Assembly (NCBI GenBank): GCA_044892505.1
Contig: CM097882.1
Span: 404,922,001-404,986,000 of the forward strand
DNA: 64,000 nt
Origin: Schmidtea nova
Taxonomy: Eukaryota
Direction: 5' to 3'
Numbering within the stretch: position 1 is the stretch's first letter; each line of letters begins with the position of its first letter. The position numbers and the translations under genes are program-made. Positions 7,689 to 59,409 of the stretch are shown one piece after another. The notes beneath the pieces were generated by a model. The model saw nothing but the letters and a program-made list of their open reading frames with translations. It was not told the origin of the DNA and ran no database searches.

Positions 7689-7859
7689 TGCACAATAATT
7701 GGCATCATTATATTATTGTTTTTATTTTTTTCTGTATTTTTTATTATTATTTTTTTTATTTCTGTGTAAAATTAAATTTTACACAGAAATAAAAAAAATA
7801 ATAATAAAAAATACAGAAAAAAATAAAAACAATAATATAATGATGCCAATTATTGTGCA
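7689..7859. repeat. 171-bp essentially perfect palindrome
   Basis: Arms TGCACAATAATTGGCATC...GTGTAAAATT and AATTTTACAC...GATGCCAATTATTGTGCA are reverse complements with a 1-nt centre. Confidence 0.95.
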
Positions 7860-9282: not shown

Positions 9283-10469
9283 GGTATTAGTGAAGTTTAG
9301 CGCCCCCTTAAAAATTAACGCCCCCGGAACCTTTGGTTTAAATTACTCATTTGTTTAAATAATACATTATTTGGCACACTTTCAAATGATGAGCCGCTTT
9401 CGTTTAGTTACGGTAGAAGAGATATTAGACACGGATACCATTTTAAGTGAGAAATGGAATATGAGACAACTTGCAATTGAAACTCAGACAATTGACGCTA
9501 CGATAAGTTTTTTGGCAAAGCGGCGATTATTGGCAAATTACTTGCAATGCCCTACATGCCACCAACCTTACTCAGTCAGCAACTACGAAGCTGGAATTGA
9601 TCGTTGCCGTTGGCGGTGTGACAAATGCAAAAACTACACTCAGTCTATTCGGTCGGGTTCTTTTTTCACCAACAGTCATGCCAGTTTACCCGATTTAGTA
9701 TTCCTGTTATATTATTGGAGTCGGCATTTTCCCAATCATTTGACAATGGAAGAGTTGCAATTATCGAACAAAACAGTAGTCGATTGGTATAATTTTGCCC
9801 GTGATATCTGCGCTTATTGGTTGGAGAAAAATCCTGTTACTATTGGTGGATTTGACGAGCATATTGAACCGTACTTTGTGGAAATAGATGAGACGGTTTT
9901 ATGAAAGCGTAAGTACAATCGTGGTATGTCTTTACCGGAAAGATAGCTATTTGGTGGGATTCAGAGGGGCTCTCTGAAAAGCTTTTTTTCTTGTACCCAA
10001 TCGGAAAGCAGCCACGCTTTTACCGATTATTGAACAATGTGTCCTGCTAGGGTCGAGAGTAATCTCTGATGGTTTCGCGTCTTATAATGGAATTGGTCAG
10101 ATTGGGAATGGAATTTTCTCTCACGATGTAATTGTTCACGACAATAACTTTGTACATTCTGCCAACAGCGATATCCACACTCAATCAATTGAAGGTGCAT
10201 GGGAACGCTTGAAATGTGAATTCAAGAGAATGCAAGGCACTAGTGAACCACTGTTGCAAGCTCAAGTGAATGAATTTATGTGGCGGTGTAATATGGCTAA
10301 TGGTTATGATGTTTTCTCAAGCCTGGTAACATGCATTATTCATAAATATCGTGTTTGAAGAGAGTGGTAATTAATAAAACTCTGATTTGATGTATTTTTT
10401 ACGTATGAGCTTTAGGGGCGTTATTTTGTTCCTGACTATTAACAGGGGGCGCTAAACTTCACTAATACC
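9283..10469 (+). mobile_element. Merlin (IS1595/ISXO2-like) transposon, defective
   Basis: TIRs GGTATTAGTGAAGTTTAGCGCCCC and its reverse complement; degenerate 8-bp TSD CAGAAAGC/CGGAAAGT. Zn-ribbon CPTC...WRCDKC, SIRSGSFF, VEIDET, RKYNRG, HTQSIEGAW; nonsense codons present. Confidence 0.93.
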
Positions 10470-11209
10470 CGGAAAGTATATCTAGGTAAAGTACACAATT
10501 CCCCATCGTAGATTGTAACAATGTATCACTAAATAGGGCGATGGGTAAAATATCATATAATGTAAATAATAGAAAATACTTACTGAGAATTCCCAATATC
10601 CAAAAATACAAATACACTATAGGGATTTTAGTGTTATAAAATACAACAACCAATCAGGTTGCGATAATTTTTCCTTGGAAAGAAGATCAAAGGTTTTAGT
10701 ATTTATATGTATGAAAACTATATAGTGCTACTTTATACAATAAGGGTAATTTAAAAAGGGGGACACCGAAGATCTATACTTTCCGTAATTTAACTTGAAA
10801 ATTTAAAGATATTCTTTCGCAAAAATGTCAAGATAAAATGAAATTAATAGTAAAATTCCATGTACAGCAGCCGTTGCTAATGCCTCGGCGATAATTTAAA
10901 ATTTAAATTTTTGACGAAATTTTTAATATAATTATATATAATTATGTATAATAAAATTAGCATTTACAGCAAAAAAAATTTAATTTTTAAAATAAAATCA
11001 AATAATCAAAAATCGAGAAAGAAATAGCCGATAAAATTCAAACTCACCGGAAATCAAGTAACCTCGAAAAAGTATGTTTATTTTAAAAAAGCTTTAGCTC
11101 CCGAATTGAGTAGTGTACAGTCTTATAAAAGATTTATGTTTATAAATAACTTGTTTGCATGGTATGATGCAGTAGGTCGAATGGTTGAAGTCGTATAAAT
11201 ACTGAATGA

Positions 11210-11611
11210 ATGTCTGATTGGCACAATATAATTGGTGTCTTTTGTTTAATCCAGATAAAAACCAAAATCGATGAACTGTTAAAGAAAGCCGTAGAAAATG
11301 CGCAGTGCAACCGGCGTATCGACATTCAACTCGCTGATATGGAAGCAGAACGGAAGATGAATGCGGACGCCTTAAGGGAAAAGTTCCGGTCCGGTTATCA
11401 TTCCATGGAGGCGACATGGACCAGCAAGGAAGGCGTGGATAAACTAAAGAGGCAAATTCAAATCCTCCAGCAGCAGGCTGCAAAAGATGCAGTGCAATTA
11501 AGGGTGTACAAAACGCTGGTCAAGGACAAGGAAACAATAATCACAAAAATGAAGGTGGAAAGCGGTATTATATCAGCCGTGGTTCCCAAAAATAACTTAC
11601 CCACGTTATAG
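11210..11611 (+). CDS. Probable coiled-coil small protein inside LTR copy A, antisense to the element; likely spliced with an acceptor at 11254
   Basis: 133-aa ORF rich in K/E/Q/L heptads; TTTGTTTAATCCAG acceptor and upstream ATGGTTGAAGTC|GT are in frame. Confidence 0.45.
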   Translation: MSDWHNIIGVFCLIQIKTKIDELLKKAVENAQCNRRIDIQLADMEAERKMNADALREKFRSGYHSMEATWTSKEGVDKLKRQIQILQQQAAKDAVQLRVYKTLVKDKETIITKMKVESGIISAVVPKNNLPTL

Positions 11612-12055
11612 TTATTTCCTGCTCGTGACAAAGATTAAGTGCTGGTATCTCAGGATCCAGTCCGACCAAAGAAATAGAAACCAAGCAAATGTGCTCGAGG
11701 ACACCTCAAACTCAAAAAAGAAGCTCGCTTGCTAGGTCAGGTCCGGAAATTGAATTCCGAGTCAATTGACCTCACAATATTGTGAAACAATCTATATCGA
11801 AATGTTATAAACTTTTGTCTGCGTATCCACATGTATCTTATTCATTGTATACTTTGCTTTGTGAAGTATAAATTAAAATTTCCTTGCCTAAAATTGATTT
11901 TCATTAATATCATTAACATCCCCCATTTGTTTCATTATCAACGTTTCATTGTGACAGGCAACAAGATGGTTAAGCTAATGTTTTATGTGTTGAGTTGTTG
12001 ATGTGAACCATAACAACGTCAGGGCCATATTGACAATCAACAACCCATCAATAAA

Positions 12056-12058
<3 letters not shown>

Positions 12059-12135
<77 letters not shown>
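12059..12135. repeat. (TA)n microsatellite (others at about 3994-4049, 5607-5660, 16414-16439, 20719-20777, 49991-50074, 51857-51913)
   Basis: Direct reading. Confidence 0.95.
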
Positions 12136-12143
<8 letters not shown>

Positions 12144-13300
12144 GTACGGAAAAGTTAAATAATGGCGATTATTTTTATTATTTTTTATGATGTGTGTCGC
12201 GTAGGTAGTCGTAAATTTCNNNNNNNNNNNNNNNNNNNNNNNNNNNNNNNNNNNNNNNNNNNNNNNNNNNNNNNNNNNNNNNNNNNNNNNNNNNNNNNNN
12301 NNNNNNNNNNNNNNNNNNNNNNNNNNNNNNNNNNNNNNNNNNNNNNNNNNNNNNNNNNNNNNNNNNAATTCGAATTTGGCTTACAATAGCAAACGCTATA
12401 GTAAGCCAAATCGACAGAAATTAAAAAATCGATTAAAAAAATTGAAAGTTTATTTATTACAATTTATTCCAATTTACTCCGTTTACTCCAATGTACCTCA
12501 TTTACTCCAATTACTCCAATTACTCGAAATTACTCCAATCGAAATTACTCGAAATTACTCCATTTTTATTACTCCAGAGTTAAAGTAATATTTTATAATT
12601 ATAGTTAATTGAGACATTATATTGTGCTCATCATTTTTTTGTGAATAATGGTGGGTTGTTGATCGTCAATATGACCTTGACGTTTCTATGGCTCTCATCA
12701 ACAACTCAACACATAAAACATTTAAACTACCATCTTGTTACCCGTCTCTATGTAACGTTGGTACTGTAGCAAGTGGGTGGGTATTCGCAATCAGTGAGCG
12801 TCGTCAATACGAAACTATGATTGACCGAATATCTCCTGGGTCCAAGGGCTACCGATAGAAGGTTTAATGCCCGTTTTGTCCCTTCTTTAATGATTGATCT
12901 ATAAGCATTCAACAAAATTTTATCGGAAATTCAACATAAACACTCTACATAACTATAAATTCATTATTGCATCCAAATAAATTATCCCGGCATCAAAAAC
13001 ACTAATATAACCTTATATTTTACCAATATTGCAATTTATGATAGTTGATACATAAAATATTTTATTTTTACAGAAAAATTTTAATCTGCATTTGAAATTT
13101 AAGAAAAACTTTAATTATTACCGTGATTTTATCAAGTTTAGAAATAATAAAAATAAAATTTCCGTTTGTTTAAAATTGCTAATTTAATCAAAAGGACAAA
13201 TTTACTCAATTCAAAAATCATATTAATTTTAAATGTAAGTTTTTGAATTTTTTCACTAAATTGATTAAATAATGATTTTTAAAGCTCAGATCAACAAAAA

Positions 13301-13556
13301 ATGGATATCCCCAGCAACTACGAAGTCAGAGAAAAATTCTCCCACCCAAAATTGGTCAAAAAAACCAGAATTCCAGCTCCTACGAAGCAAAATTGCCAAC
13401 TCTATCGACCAGGTAAAATTTTGATTATTTTAGAATTATAATTTATTTTGAACGATTTTAGAAAAATTTCCAAAGCGAATACGAGGAACCCGGCCCCTTC
13501 AGAACCGCAAACAAGAAAAATCCTTATCGGGGATTTTTATTCCTCAAACGGAATGA
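13301..13556 (+). CDS. Predicted spliced 68-aa basic microprotein inside LTR copy B (exons 13301-13412, 13462-13556; 5'-UTR intron 13235-13284); duplicated at 17605-17860
   Basis: Two GT-AG introns of 50 and 49 nt (host-typical size). Joined frame MDIPSNYEVREKFSHPKLVKKTRIPAPTKQNCQLYRPEKFPKRIRGTRPLQNRKQEKSLSGIFIPQTE*; AATAAA at 13575 followed by a T-rich tract. Confidence 0.5.
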
Positions 13557-15559
13557 AGGCTATCAATTTTGATTAATAAAATTTTTCTTTTGATATTAGT
13601 TTTTTATCCTTTTTCGTTTATTATTTATTATTTTTATGATTTTTTTGTAATCTGAAAAGTAAAAACTAATGTAGATGGCCTATTACACTAAGTTGGCTGG
13701 GTAAATTTAATTTTATACATGGTATGGTTGAATGATCGCAATTTTTGTATGGTTTTTCTGGATGTGTGATGCAGACTAACATAACTGTGTAGAATTTTCG
13801 GTATGGTTTGCTTGTGTGTATATAACTGTTGAATGCTAATGAATGATACTGTGTATGTATGTATATTGTATTTTAAAGAGATGTTGCTTGTGTATTAGTA
13901 TGGAAAATGTTATTGAATGAAATGGATGTAATTTTTTGCAAATACGGATGTGTTATGATTTTGAGATATCGTGGGGGTAGTTATAGTATACTATATATAT
14001 AAATTATATAAAATATTTTTAAAATTAAAATAATAATAATAATTTTCATAATACTTTTTATAAATTTTAAATTTATAATTTTTTGAAAGTAATATAATAA
14101 TAAAATTTCTAATTTTTATAATATACATTTTTAGATTCGAATTTTTATATTTTAAGTATATATATATAGTAAAAAATTTTTCCTATAAAATTTTGAAATT
14201 TTTGATTTTTTTAAAATGATAAAATTTTCAATATAATAATAATATTTTCGATTTAAAATTTTTATGGGTTTCAATATAAGTTTTGATTTATAAATTCTTA
14301 GGAATTTCATAAAATGACAAAATCTTTTATATCATAACAATATTAGGAAAATTTTTGGGTTACAATTTTTCATCATAAGATTTTTTTCAATATAATAAAA
14401 AGTAAATTTTTATTTTTTGATCAAAATGAAATCCACATAATAATAAATTTTTATCCATCAATTTAGAAATCCAAATAAGCATTTAATCTAAAAAGTTTGT
14501 ATATGCAAAAAAAAAATAAAATAAGTTATAAATTTTTCAACGAATATTTTTAACATCAAGTAAAGTAAATGTCGGTTTCGTCCGAGCAAGAATTTCCCAA
14601 TCAAAGTGCGCGCGAATTTTTTGGGACACTTCACTTAGGAACTTCAGGCTCCCGAAAACAAGATTCACCAGAGAAAAATTATTTTTAATTCAGATCAATC
14701 AATACTTGTCCTAAACTCATTTCATTTCATGATCATTATATCAGTTTTGAGCATTATTTCATATGATTCTTTTCCAACATTAGCTTCCATTTACTTGCGT
14801 TTTCGGATAAGATGACGGTTGTTGCGAGAGTGAAGGCGACGACGAGTAAAATGTTCTTGCACAATTATTTTTCATAATGGAAAATACATTGCTGGAGAGA
14901 TTCGTCTTTACGTTTACATGTGGTATTAATTTTTAAAAGATAAATATCAAAAATTATAAATTCGGATAAACTACATTTATTATAAATCAAATATCATTAA
15001 TATAACAACTTGCCTTTGGCCAAGCCACTGTTCCCCAGTTGGGATGAAGTGAACATGGATGTTTAGGCTATTCACCTGGACTCGAAAATATGGGCTGATC
15101 AATTTACGTATCGAACCAGCGATCCGCTCAGGCTACTTCCACCCGATCGGCACAAGGCCAGACACGGGCTTCAGGGGGTACGGAAGCAAAAAAAAATAAT
15201 TAATTAATTTTATCTTCATACAATAAATAAAATAAATTTTAGTTAAACCTGGGAATTTATGACGTGATTTAAATAAAAAAAAATAAAAAATAAAGACAAC
15301 AATTCTCATTTAATATTTTGAATAATAATCAAACATAACTGATGATAATGTAAGGATAATAATTAATAATATAAAATTAACAAGAATAAAATAATACTGG
15401 GTACGGGGTAATCGAAAAGGCATGACATTCGATGACCCCGCACCGAACAAGAAAATGGTACTTACCAATAAAATCTTCCGGAAAATTTCGGTTTGAATAA
15501 TACAAAAGTAAAAATTCTGCTAATTTTTTTTTTCAAATTCTCAAGAATTTCTGATTATT

Positions 15560-15583
15560 GCCATTTTGATGGCGGTATTTATA
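15560..15583 (+). promoter_or_regulatory. Putative LTR core promoter: GCCATTTT-GATGGCGG (paired YY1-like motifs) plus TATA box
   Basis: Conserved at 15560, 19864, 50461, 56826 and partly at 59430; about 550-630 bp from the CA end in each copy. Confidence 0.55.
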
Positions 15584-16413
15584 CCATCGATTTTCGTCAC
15601 CTTCACCAGTGTAATAAAACAAATTATTCTAGAATTTTCCTTTAATTTTTCTAAATTAATTCTAATGATTTTCCAAAAATTAAATCCATATTTTTGGGTA
15701 ATAATTTTAATTCAAATTTTAATTCAAAAAATTAATTCAAAAATTTTTAATTCAAAATATTTATTTTTGGATCGAAATTTGTTCGATTTGATTTAATTTA
15801 CGATATTTCGATTAATATTAGTTCTTTTTATTGTTAATGTGAAATATTTTGATAAAATCACAATTTTCGGCCAAAATTTTGTTAATTTTTTCTGCATGAA
15901 GGTTTAATAACACAATTCCGTTTTTATGGGTATTTTCAATGGGTTTTCCGCCTATTCTAACTTTCAGACATTCTTCTTTTGATGGCATTTGATTTTTCTC
16001 GAGGTTTCAGTGTAAGGGCTTTCAGACTCACAGCTAGCGCGTTCTCTACCGGTTGATGTGTTTTGAGTCCACTTCACCTTTTGGTGTTTTCCACTTAATC
16101 GTTTGGATTTTTAATGGATATTTGGGTTAAAACTGAATCTTGTGCACTTTCTACCTATGGGGTTATCGCTTTATTAAAACAATTTGTGGTTTTTGCCCAA
16201 CAATAATTAATTAATTTTATTATTTTGTTGTTATTATTTCCAGCATAACACTACATTGCATACACCCCGAGTGTCCCCACAATAATCGGGCTGACTCTCT
16301 CGGGCACTTCAATATTTCCGTACAACCGCATTCGTTACATATAGAAAAACATAAATATTTTACATAAAAATTATCATATAACAATTATCACTACATAAAT
16401 ATATTAAAATTAC

Positions 16414-16447
<34 letters not shown>

Positions 16448-16952
16448 GTACGGAAAAGTTAAATAATGGCGATTATTTTTATTATTTTTTATGATGTGTG
16501 TCGCGTAGGTAGTCGTAAATTTCNNNNNNNNNNNNNNNNNNNNNNNNNNNNNNNNNNNNNNNNNNNNNNNNNNNNNNNNNNNNNNNNNNNNNNNNNNNNN
16601 NNNNNNNNNNNNNNNNNNNNNNNNNNNNNNNNNNNNNNNNNNNNNNNNNNNNNNNNNNNNNNNNNNNNNNAATTCGAATTTGGCTTACAATAGCAAACGC
16701 TATAGTAAGCCAAATCGACAGAAATTAAAAAATCGATTAAAAAAATTGAAAGTTTATTTATTACAATTTATTCCAATTTACTCCGTTTACTCCAATGTAC
16801 CTCATTTACTCCAATTACTCCAATTACTCGAAATTACTCCAATCGAAATTACTCGAAATTACTCCATTTTTATTACTCCAGAGTTAAAGTAATATTTTAT
16901 AATTATAGTTAATTGAGACATTATATTGTGCTCATCATTTTTTTGTGAATAA

Positions 16953-19900
16953 TGGTGGGTTGTTGATCGTCAATATGACCTTGACGTTTCTATGGCTCTC
17001 ATCAACAACTCAACACATAAAACATTTAAACTACCATCTTGTTACCCGTCTCTATGTAACGTTGGTACTGTAGCAAGTGGGTGGGTATTCGCAATCAGTG
17101 AGCGTCGTCAATACGAAACTATGATTGACCGAATATCTCCTGGGTCCAAGGGCTACCGATAGAAGGTTTAATGCCCGTTTTGTCCCTTCTTTAATGATTG
17201 ATCTATAAGCATTCAACAAAATTTTATCGGAAATTCAACATAAACACTCTACATAACTATAAATTCATTATTGCATCCAAATAAATTATCCCGGCATCAA
17301 AAACACTAATATAACCTTATATTTTACCAATATTGCAATTTATGATAGTTGATACATAAAATATTTTATTTTTACAGAAAAATTTTAATCTGCATTTGAA
17401 ATTTAAGAAAAACTTTAATTATTACCGTGATTTTATCAAGTTTAGAAATAATAAAAATAAAATTTCCGTTTGTTTAAAATTGCTAATTTAATCAAAAGGA
17501 CAAATTTACTCAATTCAAAAATCATATTAATTTTAAATGTAAGTTTTTGAATTTTTTCACTAAATTGATTAAATAATGATTTTTAAAGCTCAGATCAACA
17601 AAAAATGGATATCCCCAGCAACTACGAAGTCAGAGAAAAATTCTCCCACCCAAAATTGGTCAAAAAAACCAGAATTCCAGCTCCTACGAAGCAAAATTGC
17701 CAACTCTATCGACCAGGTAAAATTTTGATTATTTTAGAATTATAATTTATTTTGAACGATTTTAGAAAAATTTCCAAAGCGAATACGAGGAACCCGGCCC
17801 CTTCAGAACCGCAAACAAGAAAAATCCTTATCGGGGATTTTTATTCCTCAAACGGAATGAAGGCTATCAATTTTGATTAATAAAATTTTTCTTTTGATAT
17901 TAGTTTTTTATCCTTTTTCGTTTATTATTTATTATTTTTATGATTTTTTTGTAATCTGAAAAGTAAAAACTAATGTAGATGGCCTATTACACTAAGTTGG
18001 CTGGGTAAATTTAATTTTATACATGGTATGGTTGAATGATCGCAATTTTTGTATGGTTTTTCTGGATGTGTGATGCAGACTAACATAACTGTGTAGAATT
18101 TTCGGTATGGTTTGCTTGTGTGTATATAACTGTTGAATGCTAATGAATGATACTGTGTATGTATGTATATTGTATTTTAAAGAGATGTTGCTTGTGTATT
18201 AGTATGGAAAATGTTATTGAATGAAATGGATGTAATTTTTTGCAAATACGGATGTGTTATGATTTTGAGATATCGTGGGGGTAGTTATAGTATACTATAT
18301 ATATAAATTATATAAAATATTTTTAAAATTAAAATAATAATAATAATTTTCATAATACTTTTTATAAATTTTAAATTTATAATTTTTTGAAAGTAATATA
18401 ATAATAAAATTTCTAATTTTTATAATATACATTTTTAGATTCGAATTTTTATATTTTAAGTATATATATATAGTAAAAAATTTTTCCTATAAAATTTTGA
18501 AATTTTTGATTTTTTTAAAATGATAAAATTTTCAATATAATAATAATATTTTCGATTTAAAATTTTTATGGGTTTCAATATAAGTTTTGATTTATAAATT
18601 CTTAGGAATTTCATAAAATGACAAAATCTTTTATATCATAACAATATTAGGAAAATTTTTGGGTTACAATTTTTCATCATAAGATTTTTTTCAATATAAT
18701 AAAAAGTAAATTTTTATTTTTTGATCAAAATGAAATCCACATAATAATAAATTTTTATCCATCAATTTAGAAATCCAAATAAGCATTTAATCTAAAAAGT
18801 TTGTATATGCAAAAAAAAAATAAAATAAGTTATAAATTTTTCAACGAATATTTTTAACATCAAGTAAAGTAAATGTCGGTTTCGTCCGAGCAAGAATTTC
18901 CCAATCAAAGTGCGCGCGAATTTTTTGGGACACTTCACTTAGGAACTTCAGGCTCCCGAAAACAAGATTCACCAGAGAAAAATTATTTTTAATTCAGATC
19001 AATCAATACTTGTCCTAAACTCATTTCATTTCATGATCATTATATCAGTTTTGAGCATTATTTCATATGATTCTTTTCCAACATTAGCTTCCATTTACTT
19101 GCGTTTTCGGATAAGATGACGGTTGTTGCGAGAGTGAAGGCGACGACGAGTAAAATGTTCTTGCACAATTATTTTTCATAATGGAAAATACATTGCTGGA
19201 GAGATTCGTCTTTACGTTTACATGTGGTATTAATTTTTAAAAGATAAATATCAAAAATTATAAATTCGGATAAACTACATTTATTATAAATCAAATATCA
19301 TTAATATAACAACTTGCCTTTGGCCAAGCCACTGTTCCCCAGTTGGGATGAAGTGAACATGGATGTTTAGGCTATTCACCTGGACTCGAAAATATGGGCT
19401 GATCAATTTACGTATCGAACCAGCGATCCGCTCAGGCTACTTCCACCCGATCGGCACAAGGCCAGACACGGGCTTCAGGGGGTACGGAAGCAAAAAAAAA
19501 TAATTAATTAATTTTATCTTCATACAATAAATAAAATAAATTTTAGTTAAACCTGGGAATTTATGACGTGATTTAAATAAAAAAAAATAAAAAATAAAGA
19601 CAACAATTCTCATTTAATATTTTGAATAATAATCAAACATAACTGATGATAATGTAAGGATAATAATTAATAATATAAAATTAACAAGAATAAAATAATA
19701 CTGGGTACGGGGTAATCGAAAAGGCATGACATTCGATGACCCCGCACCGAACAAGAAAATGGTACTTACCAATAAAATCTTCCGGAAAATTTCGGTTTGA
19801 ATAATACAAAAGTAAAAATTCTGCTAATTTTTTTTTTCAAATTCTCAAGAATTTCTGATTATTGCCATTTTGATGGCGGTATTTATACCATCGATTTTCG

Positions 19901-20506: not shown

Positions 20507-20714
20507 ATAATTAATTAATTTTATTATTTTGTTGTTATTATTTCCAGCATAACACTACATTGCATACACCCCGAGTGTCCCCACAATAATCGGGCTGACT
20601 CTCTCGGGCACTTCAATATTTCCGTACAACCGCATTCGTTACATATAGAAAAACATAAATATTTTACATAAAAATTATCATATAACAATTATCACTACAT
20701 AAATATATTAAAAT

Positions 20715-45860: not shown

Positions 45861-46188
45861 CTTATTTCAAGAATAAAAAATTATTTAAAATTAAGATTAA
45901 TAATTTATTTCATGTGAAGTTTTTGTTTTTTGCTTAACCTAGTGATAAATAATAATTGTTAGTTTTGAGATGAAATCAAGACTAAAATTAAGATTAAATA
46001 ACTTTTATAATGAACTTTATACTCATAAAATAATTTGGATTTCCTCTAGAAAGATTTATAATACTTAAAATTTATATACTCCGATTAAATTTTTTAAGGA
46101 TAAAATTCAATTTCTTAAAACGTAGATTAGCATTGTATTTTGTAATATAAACCAGATAGGTGAAATTTTTATCAGATGATAGCGATTC

Positions 46189-49100
46189 TGTTAGGTTGTT
46201 GATCGTCAATATGACCTTGATGTTGCTACGGCTCTCATCAACAACTCAACATAAAAAACATTGAATTTAACCATCATTTTGCCCGTCACAATGTAACGTT
46301 GGTAATGCAACAAATTGGTGGGTATTCGCAATCAGTGAGCGTCAAAAAATTCGAAACTATGATTGACCAAATATCTCCTGGGTCCAAGGGCTACCGATAG
46401 AAGGTTTAATGCCCATTTCGTCCTTTCTTCAACGATTTCTTTGTAATCATTCAATGATATTTTAATCGGAATTTAAAAATAAATAATCTAAATCAATATA
46501 AATTTATTATGGTATCAAAAATAACCCAGTTTCCGACATCAAAACATTAATAATTCATGTAAGGATCCATTTACGATGCACATAGCATAAGAACAAACAG
46601 AATAGAATAATGACAATTATTCGTACAAGAAGTGTTAAAGTTCTTTGGGTTTTCCGAGATGTTTTCGTACCTTACTGTCACTGAATTTTCGATTTCTCCG
46701 ATAAATCTAAAGCGTAATAAAATCAATTATTTCAATCAGCTGCTACACATTATATTATAAAAAGAAAAACAAGCATATTCGCATTTTTAGTTGATTTCCA
46801 AGCTCATACGCAAACATATCATCACAACCTAAACTCGGGGGTCGAAATCTCAACTAAAGGCATAGCTTTTTTCGGGATATTTTATCACAATTAATCTTGT
46901 CTAATTACTTATTTTATTTGCAAAATTTTCCGATTTTTACTTTTTTTCCCTTTAATTAACAAATCAATCTGAAAGATTTTAATCCCCTATGCCTAGTGTT
47001 TATCTTGATATATATTAAACTTGTCCATAATTTTATTAAAACTTGGATATTTTATCTTTTCAAAAATCCTAATGAGGCCCTGACAACGGGTAACGAAGCA
47101 AAATTTTCAATATTTTGTTATTTATCCGACAGTTAAATATTGATTTTCATAGATTTTATTGAATCTTTTAGATTACTTATTATGAGTTAATTTAGAAAAT
47201 TGAATTTTATCGCTTTTCCCTCAAAATCACCTGCGTTCCCCCGATGAAAAGAAAACTATATGAACGCAAATGCAAAATTGGCTGATTCCTATTGGATAAT
47301 TTATAGTATTCACTTTTAATTTACTATGATAATTTATTGATTTGCTATTTATTGATTTGCTATTTTTAGAATGACATTCTATTCAGATCGGTGGATATTT
47401 TTGACGATATGGGGTAAAATTGTAATTTTCCTTTCATTATTATTTCAACCGAATTTTTCGTATAGATAACTTCGTTCCATTAATTCATTGATGTGGAAGA
47501 ATTCTCAGCAGAGCTAATATTAATCAAGTACTTTATTCTATCTGATCTAAATTATTCACCTATGAAATTTTCAAGAATTTATTAGGCTTTATGCAACAAT
47601 GTACTTATTGGAAATTTTTCGATTCAGCGGAAACTAAAATCTATTTCCTGATTAATTTTTCTTCGCCGTAAATGGATTATTCTATTGATGGAGGTTTATT
47701 CTCCTAACTTAACCTCATTTTGGGCACATTTCGACTTGGATTGTCTGTTCATCACTGAAATTTGCCTGTACGTCTTGATAACTACATTGTGCTGACATCA
47801 GCTAATAAATAAAGTTTAATTTGTTCTGATTTTGGTTATTTATGCTGACCCAGTATAGTCATTTCCACAGCCTTGTGGGATCTCCCTTTTGGGCATTGAG
47901 TTATAATCTCCATTAACCTCGATGAAACCTGAAACGGTATACGTAAGCTGGTACAGCGTTTTGTTTGTGTTTTTTATTTAAGTGGCTTACATATCTATAT
48001 AATGTCTCTATATATTAATCTATATGCACGTTTATATATCTAATTAATATATCTATATAATACTTTACCTACGTTTGTATAACTCTATATGTGAAGGCTA
48101 TTGTGCTTCAGTTGGGTCAAATTCTTTTTCCTAGGACATTGTAAAACATTATAAGAGAAAATTAGAGATAAATTGGTTGAATTTTATATTGAACACGATA
48201 GATATTGCCACTGGTAAGCTACGAACCGCTATCTACTAGCACTACCGTCTACGTTGGAAAATTTTTAAGTACAAAATCGAATTAGATGACGATCCTGATT
48301 ACTATCTTAATGGTTCACTAAGGGTTAGACTAGATAGAGGTATCCTGAGTGTGATGAGTAATGGTATAGGATGTTATTTGTTGTAATGATGAATTCGGTT
48401 TAGTGACATAGATGAGTGAGATTTTTAGGGGGGTTGCTGAGCGGGTTGTCTATAGTAGAAACTCTACGTAGGTTTTTCTAGATGTAGTATGCTGACTTCG
48501 TGTGACGATATGTTGAATTGAATGATAAGTGAAAAACAAATTAGTTAGTAATGGTGAGATTGGATGAGTGCTTGTGAGATTTTCTGGATGTATGATGCAG
48601 TCAGACGTTGTTTAATGAAACAATGTTGTGTATGTTGGTGAATGGATGTATTGTCTATTGTATTGTCTAATATAGGAGATCTTATTTATTGAAATGTGGT
48701 AGTGTGTGTGTTGAGAATTGAATGGACTTTTGTATTGTATTAGGTATATATGTTGCTAATGAATGGTATGGATGAAAGGTTTTGCAAATATTGATGTATC
48801 ATAATTTTTGCGATATCGGGGGGGGGGGGTATTTATAAAATAATATATATATATATTTATATATAAAATATTTTTAAAATTAAAATAATAATAATTTTAC
48901 AATTCCTTTTACAAAATTTTAAATTTACAATTTTATAAAAGTTATTTAATAATAAAATTTCAAATTTTTATAATATAAATTTTTGTATTCTAATTTTTAT
49001 ATTTTAAGGATGTACATATCTTTTCATTGTAAATTTTTCTACAGAATTTCAAATTTAGAATTTTTTAAAATAATAATAAAATTTTTTGGCTTATAATTTT

Positions 49101-49986
49101 CACGTATTCCAATATAAGGTTTGATATAAGAATTTCTAGGAAGAAATTTTGATTTATAATTTTTATATTATAATTTTTACATAACATAGTATTTTTATTT
49201 TTATAACCGAATCTAAAAATTCTATAAGATTTATACAATAATAAAATTTTTATTCACAAATTCCACAATCTAAATAATTCAATAAATAAAAGAATTTATA
49301 TTAAATTAACTTTAAAAATAAATTATAAATTTTTACAAAAATTATTTCCAATCATATACGAACTTCTGAAATAAAATATATATAAAATTCGAGACGGTTC
49401 TCTTGGCGATCTCTGCACCTCTTAGAAGTTTTTACCAATGATGTTTACGGTTTGGTAAAAATTCATTGAACTATTATCGAGCATAATCAGTAAGCATTAT
49501 TTTAATATAACATTTTTACTATTTTTCGAGTGGTAATTTATGATCTTTTATACATTTGACTTTCCGATCGATATTGTGAATTCTTTCATAGTGAAGTAAA
49601 GGCGACGTTTATGGAGCGAAGGCGAATAACGAGCTGAATATTTTTGTGCTGATAAATTTTACCGTTGAAAAGACATTGATGGATGAATTAATGTTGGTAT
49701 TTTGTTGAAGTATCAGTTTTCAATTGCACTGTATGTTGTAAAATATAGTTCAGATAAAATTACATTAACATAGATTTAATATCATTAATATGAAAAACCT
49801 TGCCCTTGGCCAAGGCACTGTTCCTCAATATGAGATGAATGATCATGGATGTTTGGGCTTCACCTGAGGCGGAAAAATGGGCTGGCCAGTTACGAACCGA
49901 ACAGCGATCCACTCAGGTTACTTTCATCCGTATAGCACAAGGCCGAACGGATGTCAGAATGTATGGAAGTGCTTTTAATAAAGTAC

Positions 49987-50077
<91 letters not shown>

Positions 50078-51107
50078 TGTGTATATGATAAATAATAATA
50101 AAATGATATTAGTTTATGAGAAAATGTGACGAGATTTTATAAATGTTTGAATATAAAAAATTATAATTTTCATAAAAGAATGCATAAAATATCATATAGT
50201 ACACACAGACCAAGGTTAAAATAATTAAAAATACCTATGCCGGGAAGCGAGGGCATGATCTCGAGGGGCCTTTATAATTAGGAAACAAAATCAAGTTTCT
50301 TACGAATAATTCGATTCACGACCACAAATAATCTTCTTTCGTAATATTCTGTTATACTAGTAGTAAGAGATTCTCTGTTAAAGTTTCCCTGCTAAAAACC
50401 TCAAAATATTTAGCAACAAAATTCTTCCGCAAATCTTTTGCAAAATAGCATTAATTTTCTCCATTTTTATGGCGGTATTTATACAATTTTCCGCATTTTT
50501 ATTTCCATTGAGGTATTAAAACAAATCGTTCTAGAAGGAGTTTCTAATTTTCTCAAAATTAATTTCAACAATTTTCCGCAAAGCTAAATTAATAATTTTA
50601 CATCAAATTTTCATAAAACTAAATAATTTCTTTTTAGTCCAAAATTATACTTTTGAATTAAAGTTTATTCTAATTTAATTTAATTTGTTGCATTTTAGAT
50701 CAAAATTATTTTTCTTTTATTTTTACGAATTATTATTACTTTTACGAATTTTTAAGATAAAATCGTATTCTTCCTTCTGCAAACATGCTAAATTTCTACA
50801 ACTGAGGTTTTATAACGTAAATGCGTTCTTCACGTGCATATCCAATGTGTTTTTTGTCTATTCTAGTTTTTAGACGTGCTTCTTTTAACTATTTTGATTT
50901 TTCCTTGATGTTTTGATTAAAGGACTTTAGATTAGGATCTTGCGCGCTCTCTACTTGTTAATGCACTTTGGTCCACTTTAATATTTAGGTGTTTTTTCAC
51001 TTAACTACTTCGATTTTACTTGATGCTCTGGTTAAATTAGAATCTTGCGCGCTCTCTACATGTTGTGTTACCGCTTCATTTAAACAATTTGCAGTTTTGG
51101 CCCAACA
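46189..51107 (+). mobile_element. Giant LTR-like element, copy C (4919 bp)
   Basis: Starts TGTTAGG, ends CCCAACA; all conserved blocks collinear with B and D. Its own flanks (ATTC / TATA) do not match each other. Confidence 0.85.
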
Positions 51108-51129
51108 TATAGAGAGAAATTTGTAACGA

Positions 51130-51843
51130 GGATGATGTGACCATTACTAGAATCTGTGAACAAATATTCAGAGAACGCGGACCTCCGTGCCAGTTGCTCA
51201 TGGATAATAGCAGTTCATTTAGGTCTCGTCAATTAGAGGAATTATGTACAAAGTGGGGTATTAGTCGTATTTTTCGATGCGCCTTCCAACCATCGGGAAA
51301 CGGAATTATTGAGAAGAACCACAGGACCGTGAAGAGAATGGCGACTTTGAAGAGCCTTCGCGACAACTATTTCGCGACTGGAAGGATATGCAAGAAGTGG
51401 AAATCGGGAATGACGAAATTCGTAGTCGTTATTCTAGAGGAGACAAGGTATTCTGTAAGCCGCCGAATGCAAGATGTATAAGTGTTTGTACGGAGGGTAC
51501 CGTCACAAACGTTCACTCGCCCACGAATATCGAAGTGAATGGTGTCCCCAGGCACATAGCTGACATCAGACAGGTTGAGTTGACTGATATGACGGGAGAA
51601 GAGCGAACTATTGCAAATAATGGTCAACCTACGACTGAAATGTCAACCGATAGGCAACAAAGAAACCGATACATACCAGCGTATCTACAAGATTATATTC
51701 TCGGAGGCGACGCGCGTGACGATGATGTTGACATCACGAGGGAACGTGATAATTGATTATTATGTTTGTTTTAATAATGTCAAAAACGTGATTGTTAATT
51801 TTATGAATTTATAAATAAAGTTATTCTTGTGCGTTCGACTTCA
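51130..51843 (+). mobile_element. 3' fragment of a small Gypsy element: integrase core remnant, purine tract and about 97-bp LTR (51747-51843)
   Basis: GPPCQLLMDNSSSF...WGI...FRCAFQPSGNGIIEKNHRTVK (rve D..E region); tail RYIPAYLQDY; GAGGGAACG then TG...AATAAA...CA. Confidence 0.75.
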
Positions 51844-51850
51844 TATTTAA

Positions 51851-51917
<67 letters not shown>

Positions 51918-52162
51918 GTATGCTTATTTATTNNNNNNNNNNNNNNNNNNNNNNNNNNNNNNNNNNNNNNNNNNNNNNNNNNNNNNNNNNNNNNNNNNNN
52001 NNNNNNNNNNNNNNNNNNNNNNNNNNNNNNNNNNNNNNNNNNNNNNNNNNNNNNNNNNNNNNNNNNNNNNNNTGAGTAATTATAGCTAATAATTTTGTTT
52101 GAATACCATCCTTTAATTGTTATATTTTTCTTTTTTAAACCTCTAATAAAAACACATTATAA

Positions 52163-52495
52163 ATGCCCAATATTGAATTGGATAAATTTGGATATGAACA
52201 ATCTGTTCTATCCTCTCGAGTGGATGAGCTGGATCTTTCGTCTCAACAAATCAATAACCTTGCCGAAAATGAAAAGAAAATATGCTACAATTTTGGATAT
52301 TTATCAAGGCTGTTTCATCCAAAATCACAAGCCTGTTTCCCGATTGTGTGGCTTAATCCTATAATATTTGTAAAGCCGGAGCCTATTTCCGAAGATCAAC
52401 AAATCAACTACCGAGGACAATTCAAAGGATTTAAAGTGAAAATCGAGTCGAAAAGCAAACCAATCATGCGAGCTGTTCTGACTCTTTGTCGCTGA
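52163..52495 (+). CDS. 110-aa ORF of unknown function in the cargo slot of LTR copy E
   Basis: ATG-to-stop ORF followed by AATAAA at 52562, positioned upstream of the conserved mid-element motif like the cassettes of other copies. Confidence 0.4.
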   Translation: MPNIELDKFGYEQSVLSSRVDELDLSSQQINNLAENEKKICYNFGYLSRLFHPKSQACFPIVWLNPIIFVKPEPISEDQQINYRGQFKGFKVKIESKSKPIMRAVLTLCR

Positions 52496-53048
52496 AAATT
52501 GTTTGAATGGTATGCTCCATGTTGAGCAGTGTCCTAATGACAAATCAACATCTTTTATTGAAATAAAATTTTTATATATGTACGTAGGCACTACACTATT
52601 GATTGAAAATGGATGTATTAATTTGCAAATATGGCTTTATAGTTATTTCTTAGGATTAATTTTAAAAATTTTTTTAAAATGATAAATCAATTATAGGATT
52701 TGTAATTTTCGAGAATAGATAAATTTGAATTTGAATTTTAAAATTTGTAAAATTTAGATAATAATAAAATTTTTAGATTTATAATTTTTTTAATCTACAC
52801 ATTTAATTTAAATTTTTTAAGTTTTTCATAATATATTGTTTTTGATAATAGAATTATATTTTTACAAAAATTAATTTTGATCGTATGCAAACTTCCCAAA
52901 TAAAATTTACATAAAATTTTCAAGATAATTCATTTGGAAATTTCGAATACCCAAAATTATAGAAACAAAGTTTAAAAGTTTTTATGAATAATGTTTCTGA
53001 TTTAAGCGAAATTCAGCTAAATAAAATCAAATATAATTTGCATAATCT

Positions 53049-56000
53049 TGGTGGGTTGTTGATCGTCAATATGACCTTGACGTTGCTATGGCTCTCATCA
53101 ACAACTCAACACAAAACATTAGAATTAACCATCTTGTTGCCCATCACTATGTAACGTTGGTAATGCAACAAATGGGTGGGTATTCGCAATCAATGAGCGT
53201 CGTAAATACGAAACTATGATTGACCGAATATCTCCTGGGTCCAAGGGCTACCGATAGAAGGTTTAATGCCCATTTTCGTCCCTTCTCACATGATTTAACT
53301 GCAGATATATATTTTAAATTAACAAAAATGAAGTAATTTCATCAATTAAAATTTATTAATTTGTCCCAGTCAATCATTATGCTCGGTATTATCTAAATTC
53401 TCGGGAATTTTCGTACATTCAATTCATTCACGAACCCATTTTCGAACATATTATCATGACCTCATTCGGGGATCGATTATTCTTTAAAAAACAAACAATC
53501 TCAATTCGGGAATCGAATAATCTTTTATCAATACATATTTGATCGTAATTATTTTTGTCTAAATAATCATTGATTGCAAAATTTCGATTTCTGTATTTTT
53601 TCCTTTTAGTAAAAACTCAATTTAAGAATTTTCAATCCCCTATACCTAGTGTCTATCTTGCTTTTAATTTGTGATGTAACTTTTATCAAAAATTTAACAC
53701 TAGCTTTCAAATTTCTGCCGCGTCCCTAACAACAGGCAACGACGAAAATAAAAAAAATCTAAATGACTTTGTTAAAATTTTAATTAAGTTTTTATGACTT
53801 ATTTAGACATCTGAATTTTAGATCAATTTTATATTAGGAAACAAACTACCAAGCGCCCTGGTGTCGATTTCATCACCAAAAAACGGACGAAAGATTAACT
53901 ATATAAACGTCTTTCAAAAAATTCAAAGATCCTATTGGCTAAATTTTATTATGGTAAGTATTATATCATAGCGAAATTTATTGATTTGGTTTTATTTTAT
54001 TTTTAGCAACAGAGGTTTCCGTTTCAAACTGGAAATAGAGGTAAAATTTCATTTTTTCTTTTTTTTCTAAATTACAAGATCATTCCTAATAGCCCCAAGC
54101 ATTATCGGAGAAATCTCAAGTCATACGTCCAACAGAAATGAAATCCTCAATATTGTCAATTAGTCACAAAATCCGATCTCTCTCAGCATTTTCTTCTTAT
54201 TGCGTTTCCGTCGCAAATGGCTGCAGTAAATCTGGCAAATCCTCTATGCCAACCACTATGGAAAGAAGGTCATTATCATTGTGACCACCAAAATCAAGCC
54301 TGTCCTTTCGTGCAGGACTCTTACCTGGATTTTTGGAATATATGGATTAATCTGTGTATATTGATCTTGATGTATTTTTGTTTGGAAATTTTATACACAA
54401 TAAAAAAACTGTTATTTCCGTATGAATTTTCTTTATTAAATGATAATAGTGATTTAATAGATATTTAAACGGAAACCAAGTACAGTAGTTTTGTCGCCCG
54501 TTTCCCTCATGTAATGGTAAACCTCATCGAAATTCCACCTTTCATAGTCAGTATAGTTGGGATGGACGCTATAAATTACATGTTTTCTTTTTTACAATTG
54601 TTCTTATACTTGTAAATTATCCAGAGAATGGTTATTTGTCAATATAAATAAAGAATAAAATCAATAATATTATTGGTAATTAATTATTGGTAAATAATAG
54701 AATGTTATTGGTAAATAATTGGCTTGCTTGAGTTTATAATTAATTAACCTTTTGAATTACATTTCCGAGATGCACCATGCTGCATGGATGATGTGAGTAA
54801 GTGGGGTGATTGAGTATGAAGATAGTGTTGTTGAGTGAGACAAGCGAAGTTATGTGAAATTATTGTGGAATGAATTTGTTGTGTAGGGCGTTTGCTATGG
54901 ATGTTGATTGTTGGATGAGCTGATTTTGCATGGATTTATGGATGTATGATGCTAACTAACATAACTGTATCGATTTTCTGTATGAATTATTTGGGTGTAT
55001 GTTGCTATGAGTGTTATTGAGTGATACGGTGTGGTGTGTGGATTGTATTTTAAATAGATGTTGCTTGTGCTATTAGTATGGACGATGTTATTGAATGGTA
55101 TGGGTGCATTATTCTGCAATTATAGGTGTATTATATCTTTTGTGATACCGTGGGGTTTTGTTTATAATTAATAAATTACACAAATATAAAATTAAATTTT
55201 TACAATAAAAAAATAATTTTATAAAAAATTTTTTTAAAATTTGAATTTTATGAAGTACAATAAAATTTTCAAATTGTACTTTTTATATTTAAAAAAAAAA
55301 TTTTCAATCTTGCAAACTAGTATGAAGATTCGATTTATAAAAATTTTTTAATATTTCTAATGAGAATAGAAAAAAATTTTTCCCTGATATAGTTCCAAAA
55401 AAATGAATTTTGGTTTTATAATTAAGATTTGCATTTTTCACAATAACTAAAATTTTAATTCATAAATTTAAAATAAAGAAGTAACTCAAAATTTTTCCAC
55501 CGTCATACGAATGCTTTTACTATAAATGTCTGGATCAGTAATTTCACAAGGATTCAAGCCTGTTGATCTAAAGTAATTTTCACAATAAATTTTTATTTCA
55601 GCTTTTATATCTTCGTTCGGTTATCATTAAAAATCAACTCTAATTCATAATAGTTTTCGACATAAAGTAGGTGAATTTCGGTTTCGTTCGAGCATGAATT
55701 TCCCGAACAAAGAGCGCGCGGATTTTTCGAGACACTTCACTTGGGAACTTCAGGCTCCCGAAAACAAAGTTCACTGGAGTAAAATTATTTAGATAATTAT
55801 GCATTTAATGAGGTTTAATTCAAATAAATCAATACTTGTCTTCTTATTTCGTTTTTTGGTAATTATTTTATCGGTTTTGAGCGTTATTTTGAACGATTCT
55901 TTTTACAATATTGGCCTCTACTCGACATGTATTTTCGGATAAGATGACAATTTTTGTGAGAGTGAAGGCGAATAACGAGTTGAATATTCTTGTACAGATA

Positions 56001-57456
56001 AATTATATAATGGAAAAGACATTGATGGATAAATTGATGTTAGCGTTTTTATGTAGTATAAGGTTTTAAGTCCACATCATGTTAAAAATATAATTAAGAT
56101 AAAGATACACTACTATAAATTACAGATGATTAATATAACACCTTGCTCTTGGCCATGCCACTGTTCCCCAGTTGGGATGAAGTGATCATGGATGTTTGGG
56201 CGTATCACCTGAAGTCGGAAAAATTGGCTGATCGATTACGAATCGAATTAGCGATCCGCTCAGGCTTCTTTCACCCGATCGGCACAAGGCCAGAAAAGAT
56301 TTCAAGGGGTATGGAAGCAAAAAAAATTATTTATTTGATATCTGATATTTTAAATACTGAAACTTTATGACTATGGGAATCTGTGATAATGTTAATGAAA
56401 AACAAAATTAAGAGTTAAAATTTAAGATAATAAGATCATATAAACTATAAAATATAATATTTACACTAAAATTATTAATATGCAAAATAACAAATATCCT
56501 AATAATAAAATAAAAATAACTAAAAAAAGAGCAATGTCGACATGGAATGTCCAAAGGGCATGACTTTTTTGGGCCTCCCATATCGATGTAATGTTAATAA
56601 AATAAGATAAAACAAGAAAAAAAACATAAAATAAAATAATGATACCCTTAGGTTCAATGTGGCTTTTTTAACAGTTTTTCTTTCTCTCGGGAAAATAAAT
56701 GGTTCTTCTAAAAATTCTGGTTTGAGCGGAAATTTAAATTTTTAATCAAAATTTTTCACAAAATTCTCACAAGTTCTAAAAACAAGAAAATTTCCACACA
56801 AATTCTGAATAAAATTCTGATTCTTGCCATTTTGATGGCGGTATATATACCATCGATTGTGTGTTACCTTCACTAATGCAGTAAAACAAATTGTTCTAGA
56901 ATGTTCTTTTTAATTTCTCTAAATTAATTCTAACAATTTTCCGTAAAATTAAATCAATATTTTTACTTAATAATTTTTATAAACCATAAATAATTTATTT
57001 TTAATCCAAAAATTTTATTTTTGAATCAAAATTTATTCAATTTGATTTAATTTGCTATATTTCAATCAAGATTAGTTCTTTTTATCTTTAATGTGAAATT
57101 TTATGATAAAATCACAATTTTCTTCTAAAATTTTGTTAATTTTTCTGCACTGAAGTTTTATGACACAGTTCTGTTCTTTATGGGCATTTTAAATGGGTTT
57201 TCCGCCTATTCTAACTTTCAAACGTTCTTCCTGTGACGACTTTTAATTTTTCTTGAGGTTTCAGTGTAAGAACTTGCAGATTCCCAGCTAGCGCGTTCTC
57301 TACTAGTTGATGTGCTTGAGTCCACTTCACCTTTTTGGTGTTTCTCACTTAATCGCTTCAGTTTTTAATGGATGTTTGGGTTAAAATTGAATCTTGCGCG
57401 CTCTCTACTTAGGGGGTTACTGCTTTATTAAAACAATTTGCAGTTTTTGCTCAACA
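53049..57456 (+). mobile_element. Giant solo-LTR-like element, copy D (4408 bp)
   Basis: Starts TGGTGGG, ends CTCAACA, perfect 4-bp TSD ATCT (53045-53048, 57457-57460); TATA at 56842. Confidence 0.88.
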
Positions 57457-59409
57457 ATCTAATACAATCAATATTCTCTATTATAATCTAGACATTCCTA
57501 TTATGCTTTGAGTTTCTAGTTAGAAGATTTTTATAAATTCGGTTTTCTAAATGACTTTGCAATTTCTTTCGTGATGAGGTGAAGAAGATGTTCATGTAAA
57601 CGAAGGTGATTTATTGAATAGACGCATAATTTCGATAGCTTTTATTGTGTAAGAACTTTTGTGTAGTTGTGATAATCAATGAATTTTATATAGATACAAA
57701 TAATTACTGTGATATAATACAAATAATTTTAATTTGAGCAACCTTGCGCTTGGCCAAGTCACTACTCCTCATACAGTCAGGTTTGAGATTAAGCATAATT
57801 GGATGTTTGCGCTCACTTCGATGAAAAATGGATCAGAAAGCTGATCGAACCCCAGCTAACAAATGATTCATCAAAGTAAATAATGATGATACAAATTATC
57901 GCTGGACCATCATCAGACGTAAATGAAACAAAGATAATAAATATAATATAATAATAACATTTAAAGTTTTGTCGATCCTGGGACAAATGTGACCGAGTAT
58001 TTGCTTCACATTAAACTTCAAAAATTTATAATGATGAAATCAAAAGCAAAATTTTTAATAAAGTATGATATAATAAAATGAACTGTTTTAAATATCGTCG
58101 GACTCAACCAACAATGACATTACATAATGGTACAAAGAAATTTAAATCAGTAAGGAATAAAATAAAGATAAAATAAATAACATAAAAATAAAAATAAAAA
58201 AAAAATAATATCCAACATCGGACGAACTATGACATGATTCGTTGTCACATGCCATCAGAGTAAAGATTTCTTACATTTTGAAATGAAGCTCTACAGGTTT
58301 TAAAGTCTTCGTTCTACTATCGGTTGATCGTAATTGAGAGAAATGGATCGTCGGTTCTCTTGAAAATTTTCAATGTCGAATGAATTGAATAAGACTTTTG
58401 ACTCCGTTAGGTGAAAGTGGTTTATCAGACTTTTTTTCTCAACAAAAACTTCTTTTTGAATAAAATTATTTGGCAGGGATCTGCCTTTGATGGTAGCTCC
58501 CGTTGGGTAGTTGTAAATTGTGCTTCTATTGAAATTGATGGTTTCAGGCTGTTATTATCGTTGATGCATTTAAACAAATTGTTCTAGAAGGAATTTTCGA
58601 TTCTTCCAAAATTTAATTTAACGATTTTGAGCAAAATTGAATTAATATTTTTGTATAAAGTTTTAATAAAACTTTAGATAATTTATTTTTAATCTAAAGT
58701 TTTACTTTTAAATCAAAGTCTTTCTAATTTTAATTCAATTTGCTAAATTTTTATCTAAAGCAATTTTCTTTTATATTTTATGAGTTTTTAAGATAAAAAT
58801 CGAAATTTTCCTTCAGAAAATATGTTAGTTTTTTCTAATCTGTAATTTTATTTCATAATTGATGTTTTTATGTTATATTTGTGTTTTCAACGAGTATACT
58901 TGATGCATTTTGTACAGTTTGGTTTTTAGACGTGTTTTATTTAATTATTTATGTGATTTGTCATTACTTTGTTTTACATGGTGTTCCTCATCATATGACT
59001 TTAAGTTTACTTCTTGCGCGCTCTCTAAATGTTGTTATACCGCGTTATTCAAACAAATTTCAGTTTTTGCCCAACAATTCGCTTTCTTACTCAGATGAAG
59101 ATGAAGGAAAGAAAAATAATAATAAATAATTTTAATTCTTATATAATCCAACGTATATAAATTTAAAAACATCATAAAATAGTGATCCGGTGAGTTTCGA
59201 TTGTTTGCGTGATGATATCCGCTGTATCCTTTGGCGTATTTCAGTGGTGTCTATCCTGACTTATCCGAACAGGAAGTCTAAATTGAAGTCCTCCTCGGTG
59301 AAGATTAAATTGGGCAGAGGTTTTTGGTAATCACAAATTCACTCGTGAGCTTTGGTCCAAATCTTTAGTAGAGTTTTACTCAATGAAATATTTCATCGGT
59401 CGGAGTCAC

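Follow-up and report, generated by a model that had tools for sequence, protein, structure and literature searches.

A 64-kb window of the Schmidtea nova genome (the whole stretch of 64,000 nucleotides analysed here, positions 404,922,001 to 404,986,000 of contig CM097882.1, assembly GCA_044892505.1; positions below are those of the window) carries a family of long repeats. We estimate a probability of about three in four that these repeats are solo LTRs (long terminal repeats) from a Gypsy-type retrotransposon whose LTRs measure 3.5-4.9 kb. Their insertion by a retroviral-type integrase is well supported, because they possess TG...CA ends and three exact 4-bp target-site duplications (TSDs). 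Solo LTRs fit best, since the repeats lack long terminal inverted repeats (TIRs) and coding sequence, carry a promoter-like cluster about 600 bp from one end, and reside in a flatworm. Giant Gypsy elements are documented in this group, and the parent would be such a giant. Neither gag nor pol lies inside the repeats, and no primer-binding site (PBS) or polypurine tract (PPT) lies beside them. An earlier note on this DNA had already proposed solo LTRs of a giant Gypsy; the integrase-type insertion and the overall fit hold up, whereas a convincing PBS or PPT was found at none of the ends.

Inventory of the repeat family

The family, built from conserved blocks, was found by self-comparison of the window. 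It is real, and its inventory needs correction. Three copies are full-length, all on the plus strand: A (12649-16202, 3554 bp, complete, with TSD ATAA at 12645-12648 and 16203-16206), C (46189-51107, 4919 bp, of which 49990-50086 is a (TA)n run) and D (53049-57456, 4408 bp, complete, with TSD ATCT at 53045-53048 and 57457-57460). A fourth plus-strand copy, E (52073-59076), has lost its left end in an N gap, is interrupted by D, which is nested in it, and lacks the TATA block; its homology to the other copies is detected from about 52600 onward. The remaining three members are fragments. F (59410-59984, plus) comprises only the right-hand 575 bp, from the TATA block through CCCAACA, and is 82% identical to the right 530 bp of E. 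The 330 bp at 59081-59409, between the right end of E and F, match no other copy, though E and F are mutually closest. G (11922-12050, minus) holds only the first 130 bp of the left block. H (63084-63340, plus) is a divergent left block that opens with TGTTGGG, and the window stops at 64000. It was detected by an nhmmer profile search of alignment slices (E 0.0011), and its local scores against A, C and D (72, 57 and 57) compare with a background maximum of 39 over 1963 windows scored against D.

This tally differs from the seven copies counted before. One of those, B (16953-20506, plus), is a base-for-base duplicate of A and not an independent insertion, because both lie in a 4.33-kb duplication (16414-20743 equals 12110-16439) that is 100% identical including its N gaps: a 147-N gap and the 84 bp preceding it are the same as well. 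The joints of the duplication carry (TA)n runs, and it is probably a scaffolding artefact of the assembly; artefact or not, A and B are one insertion. Another, an inverted copy placed at 8830-12050, shrinks to fragment G at 11922-12050. When that region was scored in 300-nt slices, 10 of 11 scored 21-43 and the last 145-172; the background (n=60) had a median score of 35 and peaked at 54. A 3.2-kb copy was thus rejected, as the rest of the stretch (the ten slices of 8800-11800) scores at background and holds an IS1595/Merlin-type transposon. H had been overlooked. The ends previously assigned to A, B, C and D are exact, as are the right ends given for E (59076) and F (59984). Adjoining G is a 133-codon open reading frame (ORF) of coiled-coil character (11210-11611, plus), whose Pfam matches are weak and below cut-off.

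Divergence within aligned blocks amounts to 8-40% among A, C, D, E, F, G and H, and several diverged subfamilies are the best reading of them. The order of blocks, with coordinates from A, is a left block of about 250 bp (12649-12895), a G/T-rich block followed by an AT-rich quasi-palindromic stretch visible in self-comparison (13743-14304), an internal conserved non-coding block of about 660 bp (14543-15208), and a right block of about 650 bp. Identity reaches 83-92% at the left end (among A, C and D), 72-78% inside (76-78% in the internal block of about 660 bp) and 68-83% at the right end. Between the blocks lie poorly aligning stretches, so that the described layout of conserved blocks (68-92% identical) parted by non-aligning regions is borne out.

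Termini and target-site duplications

All five independent left ends (A, C, D, G and H) begin with TG and all five right ends finish with CA. The left ends read TGGTGGG in A and D, TGTTAGG in C and TGATGGG in G; the right ends read CCCAACA in A, C, E and F, and CTCAACA in D. Left and right ends are complementary at 6-7 of the first 8 bases and at none beyond, which makes a TIR of about 7 bp. Independent ends thus confirm the TG/CA termini and the imperfect inverted repeat of about 7 bp that had been described.

Three insertions are bounded by TSDs of exactly 4 bp: ATAA at A, ATCT at D, and ATTC shared by the left end of C and the right end of E. We compared flanks at k = 2-8, and a match appeared at k = 4 only; the first two TSDs, already recorded in the earlier note, are therefore exact and of that length alone. 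Among 12 pairs of left and right ends, a duplication joined only A with A, D with D, and C with E, where random window positions would share a 4-mer with a probability of 0.008. C has no TSD of its own, being flanked by ATTC and TATA. F, G and H each retain one end only. The TSDs at 12645, 46185 and 53045 all begin with AT and are preceded by a purine, a sample (n=3) too small to speak of target preference.

A compound insertion at 46185-59080

The third TSD, overlooked before, bounds a nest that comprises C at its left end, a truncated compact Gypsy, a gap, and E with D inside it, all on the plus strand (46185..59080; ATTC at 46185-46188 and 59077-59080). This 46189-59076 nest is one compound insertion, because the ATTC duplication encloses it, the 8-mer TCAGATGA has just two plus-strand occurrences, at 46172 and 59091, one on each side, and a frame runs across the empty site. 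Joining the flanks gives a 25-codon frame after AG, 48% Ser/Asp/Glu, that was equalled by 19 of 20000 random joins under a criterion picked after the site had been inspected. The 12.9-kb nest seems to sit in this short Ser/Asp/Glu-rich, exon-like frame (46159-46188 and 59077-59135), and further exon-like pieces with a Thr-rich stretch, which have no Pfam match, lie at 45340-45860.

The compact Gypsy remnant (51108-51843, plus) retains the integrase core and C-terminus (51113-51756) and has lost its 5' half, C immediately preceding the middle of the integrase. It matches the Pfam rve family with E 7.7e-7, short of the curated cut-off, and the closest relative, 70% identical, is a reverse transcriptase (RT)/RNase H/integrase protein of 907 aa. 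The frame ends in a short TG..CA LTR of its own, about 97 bp long (about 51747-51843, the left edge being tentative). We rejected this integrase as the internal region of the long-repeat family, given its own short LTR, its compact-pol relative and the lack of a PBS.

One could read C and E as the two LTRs of a single full-length element with TSD ATTC, its interior hidden in the gap at 51933-52072. Such an element would account for the duplication common to both copies, for the contiguous flanks and for the integrase between them, and in two middle blocks C and E agree at 0.79 and 0.70 compared with 0.54 and 0.51 for D. We nevertheless give it little credence. C and E are far too unlike, with an identity of 44-79% per 300 columns, and the right end of E is nearer to F; on these alignments they cannot be ordinary sister LTRs. 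Moreover, C is followed directly by the mid-domain integrase of a compact Gypsy that ends in its own short LTR, and no PBS intervenes. The question concerns this locus only, and such an element would be compatible with reading the repeats as LTRs.

The simplest history of the nest would combine nested insertion with one recombination. An E-type copy would have inserted at ATTC, a compact Gypsy would have inserted into that copy, and a C-type copy would then have entered at TATA within the compact Gypsy. Finally, recombination between the highly similar conserved left blocks may have deleted the middle.

Coding capacity

None of 117 frames of at least 45 aa overlapping A, C, D, E, F and H (B being identical to A, and low-complexity frames dropped) matched Pfam at E 0.001, which agrees with the previous statement that the repeats contain no retroviral genes. 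Nor was a transposase remnant found inside any copy. Among 85 frames of at least 72 aa elsewhere in the window, the sole retroelement match was the integrase at 51113. In tblastx comparisons among copies the frames were stop-ridden and none stayed open in common, and conserved protein coding was rejected on both grounds.

An ORF of 110 codons inside E (52163-52492, plus) has no detected homologue: a word-index search, covering 60-193 aa, returned no candidate, 1.84 billion representatives gave no match at E <= 0.001, and the Atlas offered only leucine-rich-repeat look-alikes scoring at most 0.79, within the shuffled range. Three GT-AG intron-like stretches of 49-53 nt were found on the plus strand in the left third of A and D, similar in size to a 46-nt host intron nearby. 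C displays a similar donor motif by eye only, which fails the scripted filter. As a lead, these stretches may represent decayed accessory transcripts. The minus strand has donor-like GTAAG in A and C and acceptor-like CAG|GTGA in A, C and D; the latter overlaps a CACCTG in the internal block of these three copies that is E-box-like on the plus strand. A 24-nt invariant motif had no match in a collection of bacterial and archaeal genomes.

Promoter-like signals in the right block

The right block contains a promoter-like cluster, located in A at 15576-15640. It consists of a TATA-like box (15576-15583), which on the plus strand reads TATTTATA or TATATATA, a pyrimidine-purine step about 30 nt on, AATAAA (15613-15618) and a TTCTAGAA core at 15627. 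The box is present in four of five right ends, the hexamer and core in all five. The earlier note had placed a TATA box about 600 bp from the 3' end; this holds for A, C and D (608-625 nt) and approximately for F (537 nt), and not for E, where the box is missing. It had also reported an ATTAAA-like signal near the right end, which is there in A/B and D and absent from C, E and F and so is not conserved. The plus-strand hexamer after the pyrimidine-purine step is AATAAA in A, ATTAAA in C and F, AGTAAA in D and TTTAAA in E, and the last 400-500 nt of the right ends form a T-rich tail on this strand.

In A and D, two of the five right ends, the TTCTAGAA core displays what we take to be a perfect three-unit heat-shock-element pattern, which occurs nowhere in 50.8 kb of background. 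What are presumably two opposed YY1-like motifs (15560-15576) adjoin the TATA-like box in the same two copies. A similar 15-mer with a TAAAACAA core recurs at 15610-15625, within the promoter cluster, and at 16172-16187, 30 nt short of the right end, with equivalents in C-F; instead of a poly(A) signal, it could be a binding site for some factor.

Judged from motifs, the plus-strand signals would fit the classic layout of a long U3 and a short R. U3 would span 2.9-4.3 kb, open with the conserved hairpin block and evolve fast. The TATA box would lie about 620 nt from the end, with transcription starting about 30 nt later, and a poly(A)-like hexamer about 10 nt past the start would leave a short R, followed by a T-rich U5 of about 550 nt. 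A full-length element of this build would have integrated, after which recombination between its two long LTRs would have left a single one flanked by the original TSDs.

Evidence against solo LTRs, and RNA folding

Several observations weigh against solo LTRs with this layout. No RT, gag or RNase H match exists among the 202 frames scanned, and no pair of independent copies is similar enough for sister LTRs. The window contains no gag-pol beside a family copy and no pair of direct repeats around PBS, gag-pol and PPT. A TGG-type PBS was found at none of nine ends, nor at G. A purine-rich flank occurs at one end only, the right end of E on the minus strand (10 of 12 purines); this PPT candidate was rejected, as one end in ten can reach 10/12 by chance and the flank is TSD-bearing host sequence.

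The signals of orientation also conflict between strands. Poly(A)-like hexamers are common, numbering 258 in the 50.8 kb of background (2 x 25.4 kb). On the minus strand the TATA-like box of A and C reads TATAAATA, a canonical TATA; TCAG follows 26-29 nt past the box in A, D and F; and an invariant ATTAAA stands 219-222 nt from that strand's end in A, C and D and is absent in H. Given this minus-strand reading of the box, the promoter may point the other way or work in both directions. We lean slightly toward the plus strand as sense, as the earlier note did.

Folding is similarly equivocal. The conserved left 250 bp is predicted to fold into a series of covarying hairpins, the first of which pairs the terminus with positions about 50-63. 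Computed, like all common folds here, on a sequence alignment, its plus-strand common fold scores -27.1 (minus strand -20.3), compared with -13.4 +/- 3.2 for 40 column-shuffled alignments, a crude control whose lowest value was -19.9. Two-sided changes occur in 13 of 59 pairs, and this covariation stems largely from one divergent sequence. Single sequences of the left block fold weakly on the plus strand except H (z -1.7, +0.3, -1.5 and -2.8), and for the 3' part of the internal block the minus-strand fold (-39.7, shuffled -26.0 +/- 3.9) is better than that of the plus strand (-34.9).

The remaining folds are local. Stability is predicted for a CATG-loop hairpin (15398-15449) in A (z -4.0/-4.6) and in D (z -2.7/-1.9) but for neither C nor E, and the copies yield no common fold for it. 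A short hairpin of the internal block is no more stable than its shuffles (11 folds, z -1.9 to +0.7). Sliding windows with z <= -2 number 4 of 58 in A, 8 of 72 in D and 12 of 80 in C, three of the last on its (TA)n run. Rfam contained no known self-cleaving ribozyme matching the repeats, such as a retrozyme would carry; over the whole window its six matches with E up to 1 were confined to miRNA models, lay on (TA)n or T/A runs and stayed below cut-offs without exception, leaving no structured RNA by Rfam, and ARAGORN found no tRNA.

Alternative origins

The strongest competitor, which we nonetheless consider unlikely, holds that the repeats are complete non-autonomous DNA elements without long TIRs, mobilised in trans by a DDE enzyme of Ginger- or Gypsy-like type. 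Such an enzyme would read only the terminal 7 bp, perhaps with the terminal hairpin, and the promoter and mini-introns would belong to a carried transcript. The simple TSD-bounded copies A and D are indeed both single and without PBS or PPT, and the plus-strand mini-introns in A and D and the 110-codon ORF in E would find a ready place in such an element. Ginger1, Ginger2 and GingerRoot share Gypsy-like TG..CA termini and a similar total length with the repeats, according to PMC2836005 and PMC6839031; Ginger2 measures 2.7-6.7 kb with TG ends, and both Ginger1 and Ginger2 produce 4-bp TSDs. The same sources, however, describe TIRs of 40-270 bp and TSDs CCGG/CCGT for Ginger1, TIRs of 45-297 bp and a preference for RTATAY for Ginger2/TDD (PMC2836005), and TIRs of 100-150 bp with 6-bp TSDs for GingerRoot (PMC6839031). 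Against TIRs of 40-300 bp in that group, the repeats have one of about 7 bp and no transposase, and their targets ATAA, ATCT and ATTC fit neither Ginger1 nor Ginger2 at any of the three sites. Ginger1 was thus rejected on TIR length and TSD sequence, Ginger2/TDD on TIR length and the absence of RTATAY from all three sites, and GingerRoot on TIR length and a TSD of 4 rather than 6 bp.

A bolder variant, which we rate as rather improbable, would have complete TIR-less elements moved whole by a retroviral-type integrase acting on the 7-bp end and hairpin array, and equipped with a promoter that is inducible by heat shock and possibly works in both directions, together with a small spliced accessory gene. 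In a milder version the repeats may be giant LTRs with a spliced accessory microprotein encoded in U3 and a promoter under the control of heat-shock factor.

There is a slight chance that the solo LTRs stem from another LTR group, BEL/Pao or Copia, or that the repeats are internally deleted LTR derivatives. TG..CA ends are common to all LTR groups, and no internal gene is present by which to classify the parent. BEL/Pao and Copia elements, however, usually have 5-bp TSDs and short LTRs. Furthermore, in Dugesia and Schmidtea over 90% of the LTR elements are Gypsy (bioRxiv 10.64898/2025.12.11.693146). That the family is an assembly artefact is barely conceivable: A and B match even in their gaps, and several copies border on (TA)n runs and N gaps, yet the 8-40% differences among A and C-H and three insertions with exact TSDs refute this explanation for the family and confine it to B.

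Other sequences in the window

The window has a GC content of 30%. The last exons of a DNAAF4/DYX1C1-like host gene lie at 6974-7470 (plus) with a 46-nt intron, followed by a near-perfect 171-bp palindrome at 7689-7859. Its TPR exon (7175-7354) matches DNAAF4-type proteins; 14 of 15 hits name schistosomatids (69-73% identical), the best are from trematodes, and no planarian protein is among the hits listed. Taken together, the GC content, the tiny introns and the dense mixture of transposon remnants described below would suit a triclad flatworm as host. An elongation factor 2-like pseudogene, decayed and intronless, is at 22451-23236 (plus).

Merlin/IS1595-type transposons occupy 9281-10470 and 25976-26681, the first with intact terminal inverted repeats. 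A Polinton/Maverick-like protein-primed DNA polymerase (36354-38843, plus) is frameshifted, includes an endonuclease-VII-like motif and is adjoined by tandem repeats at 35610-36290. Remnants of pogo/Tigger (1214-2987), hAT with zf-BED (24300-25403), piggyBac-like (32674-33549), hAT with DUF4371 (39985-41883) and mariner (43281-44580) elements were also recognized; a weak Flu_PA Pfam match on the pogo C-terminus, below cut-off, was judged to be chance. Finally, a small dispersed repeat family at 8427-8642 and 60571-61376 (68-79% identity) is unrelated to the LTR-like family.

Relation to giant Gypsy elements

Burro-like giants are plausibly the natural parent of the repeats, and we regard membership in Burro itself as an even wager. 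Burro occurs in three dugesiid species with an internal region of up to 25 kb and a total length above 30 kb (PMC6431247), which implies LTRs of several kilobases. Compared by description only, the repeats resemble Burro/GYPSM1 in their flatworm host, 30% GC, the implied multi-kb LTRs and the expected TG..CA integrase-type ends; they differ in lacking the giant polyprotein, PBS and PPT, and no domain of the Burro type (a polyprotein of about 5000 aa with BIR, BCL2, ankyrin and env) was found in the 202 frames scanned.

Two other Gypsy groups invite comparison. The Ogre elements of legumes, which are Ty3/Gypsy elements with 5-bp TSDs, belong to a plant lineage and are likened to the repeats by length only. 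Their LTRs of 1.9-6.5 kb (PMC6431247) span the 3.5-4.9 kb seen here. Closer in host, in 63 of 65 cases the TSDs of the flatworm Gypsy element lennie and its solo LTRs measure 4 bp, and the solo LTRs of lennie/ta-TRIM in Echinococcus keep promoter activity and use non-canonical poly(A) signals (PMC4558846). They thus share with the repeats a flatworm host and TSD-flanked solo LTRs, whereas ta-TRIM as described there is a miniature with two LTRs and the repeats measure several kilobases without direct terminal repeats.

Our literature search returned no paper on planarian Gypsy solo LTRs, none on spliced accessory ORFs within long Gypsy LTRs, and only PMC6431247 on GYPSM1; the accessible portions of PMC8532177, PMC13238120, PMC13309565 and PMC8797187 contain nothing on the anatomy of Burro LTRs. 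These LTRs may already be described in the original Burro paper, its supplements or Repbase entries. Solo LTRs and giant planarian Gypsy elements being already known, the surprise is modest. What is new is the corrected inventory, the third TSD and an internal anatomy not found in the literature searched.

If the repeats are solo LTRs of Burro-like giants, they would be among the longest animal LTRs, and would provide a first look at the organisation of such LTRs: a conserved end of 250 bp that folds, a middle that evolves fast and holds tiny introns, and a promoter core with what we take to be the heat-shock-element pattern. Furthermore, long similar blocks favour ectopic recombination, and the nest of 12.9 kb at 46189-59076 has the look of such an outcome. 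This fits the enrichment of Gypsy elements reported at planarian synteny breakpoints (PMC11410931).

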